DNA of 64,000 nt from Gemmatimonadota bacterium (lineage in GTDB: Bacteria > Gemmatimonadota > Gemmatimonadetes > Palauibacterales > Palauibacteraceae), in the NCBI GenBank assembly GCA_963666735.1, contig OY762926.1, forward strand, positions 3,072,001 to 3,136,000, given 5' to 3'. This document shows, piece by piece, positions 53,437 to 53,591 of this stretch (its first letter is position 1; every line of letters starts with the position of its first letter). The translations under genes and the position numbers were made by a program. The notes beneath the pieces were generated by a model, which was not told the DNA's origin, searched no databases, and saw only the letters and a program-made list of their open reading frames with translations.

Positions 53437-53501
53437 ACCCGCCGTCAAATCAGGCGTATAATTCCCAAACCTTACATGCCGGGTAACAGTCGGCATACTC
53501 T

Positions 53502-53591
53502 GGCTCCCCCGCGCGGGCGGGGACGGCGGGGCGCATCTTTTCTCTCCCCCGCCGATCGCCGCGGCTCCCCCGCGCGGGCGGGGACGGCGGG
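53502..53591 (+). CRISPR. Type I-E-like CRISPR mini-array (2 repeats, 1 spacer)
   Basis: Identical 29-bp GGCTCCCCCGCGCGGGCGGGGACGGCGGG at 53502 and 53563; 32-bp spacer; CCCCGC-N4-GCGGGG hairpin. Confidence 0.7.

Follow-up and report, generated by a model that had tools for sequence, protein, structure and literature searches.

A two-repeat CRISPR unit of type I-E origin within a tRNA-Ala-integrated element of a Gemmatimonadota bacterium

The closest described counterparts of the locus presented here are RNA anti-CRISPRs, guide-like regulatory units and orphan arrays. RNA anti-CRISPRs (Racrs) include solitary repeat units that reside on mobile elements, retain an intact Cas6 stem and can dispense with the handle, and they are driven by a strong native promoter in hosts whose CRISPR system they can inhibit (PMC10651486). 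CreR/CreA and the viral Cracr units consist of two repeats and one spacer with no adaptation leader, and are characterized by a near-canonical upstream repeat and handle, by cognate cas loci and by a PAM-flanked partial target (10.1101/2023.03.03.530964; 10.1101/2024.10.29.618823). CRISPR-repressed toxins represent a further group (10.1101/2024.01.05.574328), while orphan or distant arrays are described as decaying when separated from cognate cas genes (PMC7145637). In E. coli, how Cascade binds and targets is influenced by the length of the handle as well as by its sequence (PMC4288178).

The window, i.e., the whole stretch of 64,000 nucleotides analysed here, contains a repeat-spacer-repeat unit directly upstream of the toxin-antitoxin genes higBA (Table 1). 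It shares with the Racrs the intact Cas6 stem and the location on a mobile element, and related strains with a single repeat look like the Racr solitary repeat unit, but it has neither the strong native promoter nor a host system to inhibit. Similarly, it has the two repeats, the one spacer and the lack of an adaptation leader of CreR/CreA and Cracr, but not their near-canonical upstream repeat and handle, cognate cas loci or PAM-flanked partial target, and none of the tested features of CRISPR-repressed toxins was found in it. The unit qualifies instead as an orphan array in decay: no cognate cas genes accompany it, it is short and degenerate, and its spacer is lost among strains. Unlike generic orphan arrays, its history can be traced through an element at the same integration site, insertion sequence (IS) ends at the breakpoints and three strain forms. 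We consider it very probable that a formerly longer type I-E array, carried as cargo on a tRNA-Ala conjugative element that has collapsed, left the unit behind as its leader-distal tail, and that this tail is now decaying as an orphan.

Table 1. Coordinates of the element, the repeat unit and the neighbouring genes (positions are those of the window)
Feature	Position	Strand	Evidence or remark
tRNA-Ala(TGC), integration site	51789..51861	+	attL core 51818-51862; same tRNA and upstream gene flank the G014 element
Left deletion scar near 51915	51862..51972		51716-51915 matches L270, 51915-52623 matches L246
virB3-like gene	51973..52281	-	PF05101, E 2e-9
trbC/virB2 pilin gene	52278..52565	-	PF04956, E 2.5e-18
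alpA-like regulator, split over two frames	52562..52799	-	PF05930 matches halves in different ORFs
Small regulator gene of this element family, frameshifted	52828..53105	-	93% DNA identity to intact host sister copy
IS3-family element, 5' 305 bp, truncated inside orfA	53137..53441	+	Two full 1331-bp host copies; PF01527
IS1595-family terminal inverted repeat, contains TATAAT	53442..53466	+	2 mismatches to G003 element end; same in G026
IS21-type end, outer 22 bp, with left inverted-repeat arm	53467..53488	+	Pattern matches in congeners; putative family
13-nt stub	53489..53501	+	Probable remainder of IS-interrupted spacer; no AAGA end
Repeat 1	53502..53530	+	I-E repeat nt 1-22 intact, 7-nt tail divergent
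Spacer, 32 nt	53531..53562	+	No target found; missing or different in related strains
Repeat 2	53563..53591	+	Same as repeat 1; last 8 nt overlap start of homology to G014 repeat-free higBA locus
Predicted higBA promoter (-35 TTGACG, 17-18 nt, -10 TAnnnT)	53674..53703	+	Conserved in L087, L088, L090, L091, L119, G014
higB toxin gene, open	53742..54023	+	PF05015, E 2e-14
higA antitoxin gene, open	54040..54345	+	HTH_3, E 3.5e-9
attR core	55055..55099	+	54902-55106 91% identical to right end of G014 element

The repeat unit and its type I-E relatives

The initial annotation had described two identical 29-bp repeats with a 61-bp period, each folding as a hairpin and ending in a divergent stretch of 8 nt, and had taken them for a cas-less mini-array of type I-E character that lies inside a tRNA-integrated element and next to higBA; all these elements of the description were borne out. 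The two 29-mers are identical and their identity breaks off sharply at both flanks. A dispersed repeat of the REP or MITE type, which had been named as an objection to an array, was rejected, as the 29-mer has two copies only in the 3.98-Mb single-contig host genome (up to 4 mismatches, either strand). Each repeat forms a hairpin with a 6-bp stem and a 4-nt loop, which is not stronger than those of shuffled sequences (z -0.53) and has a stem probability of 0.97 when the repeat plus spacer is folded alone, so the Cas6 stem-loop is predicted to be intact in both repeats. Folding of the two repeats together loses the Cas6 stems, and the same occurs in 96% of real units, hence this behaviour is not special. 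Compared with class relatives, the 8-nt handle has the same base at 2 of 8 positions and thus departs from the canonical 5' handle. A search of Rfam returned tRNA only.

Judged by sequence, the repeat is of type I-E origin, since its positions 1-22 match, without exception, the repeat of the cas-linked array of the congener G026, which then continues TAGGCCS (61 relatives compared), and since period-61 pairs track the genomes with I-E cas7. In particular, the G026 array has a period of 61 and 77 repeat hits and follows cas3, cse2, cas7, cas5, cas6e, cas1 and cas2. I-E cas7 is present in two of the 36 genomes of the genus, G014 and G026, and period-61 I-E hairpin pairs occur in three of the 36, namely these two and the genome of the window. 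AAGA was seen at six of the nine array starts examined, which are all six of those that follow a cas operon, while the remaining three follow an IS or are orphan; the window groups with the latter, as no AAGA leader end precedes its first repeat. In the class relative G118, an IS sits inside a spacer and the last two repeats of the split array share one degenerate tail.

The unusual tail, present in two identical copies, could also be explained by an array of another system, either one resembling type IV-A or a family for which this tail is the normal handle. Arrays of type IV on conjugative elements reportedly resemble I-E repeats, which counts for such an origin. We regard it as extremely improbable, and it is largely refuted: no csf2 was found in the host, and the exact tail had 0 matches in IMG/VR, was solitary in all of its metagenome hits (17/17) and was present in no array of the 36 genus genomes. 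These searches for the exact tail indicate that it does not represent a repeat family.

Short arrays of this kind are found elsewhere as well. The class relative G358, which has no I-E cas7, carries an orphan I-E mini-array of three repeats, the last one degenerate (L252:10623-10801). A further I-E system that may be borne by an element was noted in G243, where the operon and its array are flanked by a tRNA-Ser on one side and an alpA-like region on the other (L248:11932-15769). Viral contigs often contain I-E-like mini-arrays whose tails are loose (19 loci); on the IMG/VR contigs L039, L041-L044, L046, L047 and L053 the arrays are short (2-13 repeats), again I-E-like and variable in their tails. 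The class-wide BLAST of 401 genomes scored two candidates per genome and overlooked IS-end matches that were later given by a pattern search; the 163 'matches' that it gave at E 0.01 consist largely of noise and served solely to point to I-E arrays. Two unpublished genomes, G085 and G346, were also included, and nothing claimed here depends on them.

CRISPR systems of the host and the tRNA-Ala element

The host genome consists of one contig and is 94% complete by markers. It has two long arrays with 36-37-nt repeats (49 and 28 spacers), which lie beside operons of the GSU0053/GSU0054 type (I-G), and both host cas1 genes belong to these I-G loci. None of I-E cas7, cas6e and cse1 or of type IV csf2 was found in the host genome, and tblastn with the eight I-E proteins of G026 gave nothing better than E 0.18. 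Since the only CRISPR systems of the host are of type I-G, there is no cognate Cascade to borrow, and the earlier proposal that the element uses a type I-E Cascade of its host finds no support here. From the established specificity for repeats, I-G proteins would not be expected to process the I-E hairpin. One of the host I-G systems (L025:1098-13314, G000:C1:146097-158313) lies directly behind an integrase, MobC and a relaxase and itself appears to be cargo of an integrated mobilisable element.

The unit lies within an element of 3.2 kb that is bounded on both sides by a 45-bp direct repeat of the tRNA-Ala 3' end and contains no integrase. An intact element of 36.7 kb occupies the same tRNA-Ala in G014, next to the same upstream gene (87.8%) (L270:14909 to L247:13721; G014:C3:3020908-3057720). 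Its transfer part comprises integrase, ArdC, VirB11, TraG, VirB8, TrbL, TrbI, VirB9, VirB4, TrbC and an S24 repressor, after which come a complete I-E operon, an array of 46 repeats, IS insertions and the right end. Thus, the genus, which is sponge-associated, harbours a conjugative element at tRNA-Ala that has an entire I-E system as cargo. A literature search that covered few subscription papers and no supplements gave no description of this element.

The two elements share the tRNA-Ala site, the att core, homologous trbC, virB3 and regulator genes, the right end and the slot of the array. Identity amounts to 84.5-86.5% in the left modules and 91% at the right end, and the two repeats of the window take the slot and orientation held in G014 by the cas operon and array. 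Compared with the G014 element, the left side of the window's element is without about 15.4 kb (integrase to virB4), and the integrase, most transfer genes, the cas operon, the leader and nearly all repeats are absent. The window repeat also differs from that of G014 at 2 of the first 22 nt, and it is closer to that of G026 (22/22) than to that of the same-site element (20/22), whereas the I-E locus of G026 has no homology to the window's tRNA-Ala element in the 76 kb examined. Thus, the history of the cargo would not be a straight line from G014.

The small regulator gene, whose translation breaks after residue 13, has relatives in 13 of 101 genomes of the family, and as many as 13 elements in a single genome of the genus are marked by it. 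In a sister element of the host (L028:10103-13350), AbiEi/AbiEii and a DruA fragment occupy the same cargo slot. When loci of sister regulators were inspected with 1.5-kb flanks (30 fetched of 50 matches listed), the repeat pair was present in the window only and in 0 of the 29 others; one of the 30 loci, a sister element, has a repeat-like hairpin of 16 nt where its regulator gene ends, which was taken as chance. Two stretches just inside attR have inverted look-alikes at 28-29 kb of the window (54918-55016 with 27938-28036, and 54978-55025 with 29351-29398), near a second higBA pair, which are probably ends of related elements.

Insertion-sequence ends in front of the first repeat

The 60 nt upstream of repeat 1 consist of two IS ends and 13 nt. 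The sequence TATAAT at 53457-53462, one of 26 in the genome, had been interpreted as the array's own -10 box, and the ATGCCG and CGGCAT arms at 53476-53481 and 53491-53496 as an inverted repeat in its leader. Both are found where they had been placed, but the hexamer belongs to the terminal inverted repeat of an IS1595-type element and has no -35, while the inverted repeat straddles an IS end, with its left arm derived from the IS, and the leader label is not justified. Indeed, a promoter scan of 52900-55100 gave 0 promoter-like sites, the TATAAT being devoid of both a -35 partner and an extended -10. The region was considered as an intergenic promoter of the element itself and then as a true leader, and both were dropped in view of the IS ends and the lack of AAGA.

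The motif at 53442-53466 was found at four places in 3 of 144 other genomes of the order. In G003 and G026 it constitutes inverted ends around a DDE_Tnp_IS1595 and Zn ribbon transposase, flanked by an 8-bp target duplication, which is a hallmark of the IS1595 family (PMC8101967); the window has just one of the two ends. The element in G003 (L274:3014-6012) is about 3 kb long and carries a DNA methyltransferase-HNH fusion as a passenger.

The adjoining motif at 53467-53488 matches, with 1-3 mismatches, six places near contig ends in 3 of 35 congeners, where the flanks diverge directly after the motif. It also agrees at 16 of 22 positions with the end of the IS in the G118 spacer, which encodes rve and HTH domains and is flanked by a 5-bp duplication, and resembles ends beside istB in G012. 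These similarities suggest that it belongs to the IS21 family, the congener copies being cut from their transposase by contig breaks. The core of this end had four matches in IMG/VR, all in unrelated coding DNA, and a plasmid search with it gave nothing useful. The 13-nt stub that follows is probably a spacer remnant, and an analogous stub of 16 nt lies beside the IS in the G118 spacer; it could also be a further scrap of IS21. Read on the opposite strand, the right arm of the inverted repeat (53489-53496) is identical to the internal repeat of the IS21-type end, and the stub may accordingly be a second IS scrap.

Strain forms, higBA and possible functions

The stretch is present in full in 8 metagenome runs from three studies, one of them possibly its source; 22 runs were listed, none of them RNA, so that they have no bearing on expression. 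Variants come from 4 of the 22 listed runs (each with a partial word share), with reads placed at 85% likeness and one contig per form per run. In two of them (X9 and X10), 53501 is joined to 53563, leaving one repeat and no spacer (sides of 94 and 120 nt), and the sequence otherwise differs here by 0-4 letters. The word share of X9 is 0.80, against 0.79 predicted for the one-repeat form, and a collapse during assembly is unlikely because the repeat is shorter than the 31-letter words. A further joint in X9, from 55024 to 51859 (side 40), was not accepted as evidence of excision.

In the other two runs (X12 and X17), the length is kept and 19 letters and 6 gaps differ, the gaps falling within 53523-53559 and the first one being a T behind 53523. 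When tail and spacer were swapped in silico for those of 331 real units, the median numbers of mismatches and gap letters were 17 and 6, 14 and 10, or 11 and 14, depending on which of three scoring schemes was applied; the first event was reproduced in 123-172 of the 331 swaps. Going by difference counts rather than letters, X12 and X17 fit a different, canonical-type tail of the first repeat together with another spacer. A single ancestor with three repeats (one with a normal tail and two with the same degenerate tail) and two spacers would thus give rise to the window, X12/X17 and X9/X10 forms by spacer loss.

The module of higBA has a life outside the unit. Its predicted promoter is common to five GTDB relatives and to G014, where the module is 91% identical over 53584-54566 but lies in a different island and has no repeat. 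Among the best 80 of 547 confirmed GTDB HigB loci, 0 have an I-E repeat pair beside them and 2 have a single downstream hairpin. Homology to the G014 higBA locus begins at the first base of the handle, the odd tail being common to higBA-flanking DNA; either the tail came from the higBA flank, or the G014 copy was cut from an array tail.

The reading as a decaying orphan array accommodates these observations in the following way. An I-E array with its cas genes would have travelled on a tRNA-Ala-integrating conjugative element, the window's ancestor presumably having had a cas operon of its own, and the element, once tens of kb long, would have shrunk to 3.2 kb in this lineage. ISs would have struck the cargo, probably in the order of an IS21-type element into a spacer, an IS1595-type element into the end of that IS and an IS3 element beside the regulator, and deletions between them would have taken away cas operon and leader together with almost the whole array. 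Recombination between the remaining repeats could then cause the loss of one or two spacers. Lacking cognate Cas, the unit most likely does nothing, and the intact higBA with its own promoter may help the wreck to persist. Several points stand against the orphan-array reading: no intermediate combining cas genes with precisely this tail came to light, the repeat is closer to that of G026 than to that of the same-site G014 element, the Cas6 stem of each repeat is without a flaw although its tail is altered, and, if the tail derives from the higBA flank, a later duplication or conversion of repeat 1 would be required. Such a relic matters little by itself, but it is a warning for screens for Racr, CreTA and Cracr, as a cas-less 'mini-array with promoter next to toxin-antitoxin' can arise by decay, the perfect -10 box being here part of the terminal repeat of an IS1595 element.

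The intact stems combined with aberrant handles in both repeats would also be expected of an RNA decoy of the Racr kind, accidental or selected, in which a transcript starting from the IS-borne TATAAT is cut by incoming Cas6e to a 61-nt RNA whose handle is self-paired and without function and which soaks up Cas6e and Cas7 of I-E systems arriving on related conjugative elements. In its favour, the predicted pairing of the handle to the spacer is 0.87, a value reached by 0 of 331 real crRNAs (controls with canonical handles, hence not like for like), and in this genus elements of the same family are vehicles of I-E systems. In addition, RacrIF1 inhibits even with an altered handle, and two I-E Racrs are known (PMC10651486). 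The decoy is nonetheless very improbable. Indeed, Racr action is described there as dose-dependent and in need of a strong promoter (PMC10651486), whereas the TATAAT is part of an IS end with neither -35 nor extended -10; the host has no I-E system to inhibit, and I-E cas7 is found in just 2 of 36 genus genomes. Nor is the unit conserved, being seen at 0 of 29 sister-regulator loci, at 0 of the best 80 HigB loci and in 0 of 17 metagenome matches to the tail. As regards the complementarity of spacer and repeat, 357 of 5000 shuffles attain it, as do 202 of 5000 random 32-mers. The spacer considered as an inverted copy of the repeat tail (14/16) is a borderline case, reached by 4 of 331 real spacers and by 357 of 5000 shuffles, and its duplex energy by 85 of the 331 real spacers. 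If the decoy were true, it would outline a route from array debris to RNA anti-CRISPRs, with the one-repeat strains as the solitary-repeat end state, and a conjugative element arriving at the same site would find its I-E system blunted.

The spacer could alternatively make the unit a mobile mini-array directed at competitors, i.e., a guide by which the I-E Cascade of some host attacks a rival, with spacers differing among strains according to the rival. No target in host, plasmid or phage DNA emerged: the spacer had no match in IMG/VR (exact pattern with every sixth base free), a best E of 2 among INPHARED phages and only repeat-type hits in PLSDB (E 0.06 or worse), and it reached 24/32 in the host genome and at most 14 nt in all fetched loci, although the viruses and mobile elements of sponges are thinly sampled in these collections. 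Together with a handle that agrees at 2 of 8 positions, an immobile element, the lack of a cognate Cascade, IS debris upstream and the one-repeat strains, this makes an attack on competitors very improbable.

Finally, the adjacency to higBA, both genes of which are open, had led to the suggestion of gene regulation, i.e., of a guide that pairs partially with the promoter of higBA or of cas genes, as in CreTA/CrePA, CreR and Cracr. Precedents are given in three sources (10.1101/2023.03.03.530964; 10.1101/2024.10.29.618823; 10.1101/2024.01.05.574328), and toxin-antitoxin pairs lie directly before cas3 in G026 (MNT-HEPN) and apparently in G014 (HicAB-like, by eye). We nevertheless hold this function to be highly improbable, because no PAM-flanked partial target was found: within the element seed matches stop at 7 nt, and the longest one with an A[AT]N PAM, which is an assumption for this clade, has 8 nt in six I-E loci (156 kb), a length attained by 236 of 300 mock spacers. 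Moreover, higBA possesses a protein antitoxin and its own conserved predicted promoter, and it stands without repeats in G014 and at all of the best 80 HigB loci. The combination of repeat-spacer-repeat with higBA does not recur in relatives, either there (0/80) or at sister-regulator loci (0/29). Hence, the initial annotation was right as to ancestry and setting, while the mechanism that it proposed is unsupported.

Toxin-antitoxin pairs were encountered beside CRISPR loci of both types in this genus. An MNT-HEPN pair precedes the I-E cas3 of G026 and another is located next to a host I-G cas1 (L021:8445-9093; L027:5360-6008), and in G014 a HicAB-like pair, recognized by eye, precedes cas3 (L246:12700-13176).
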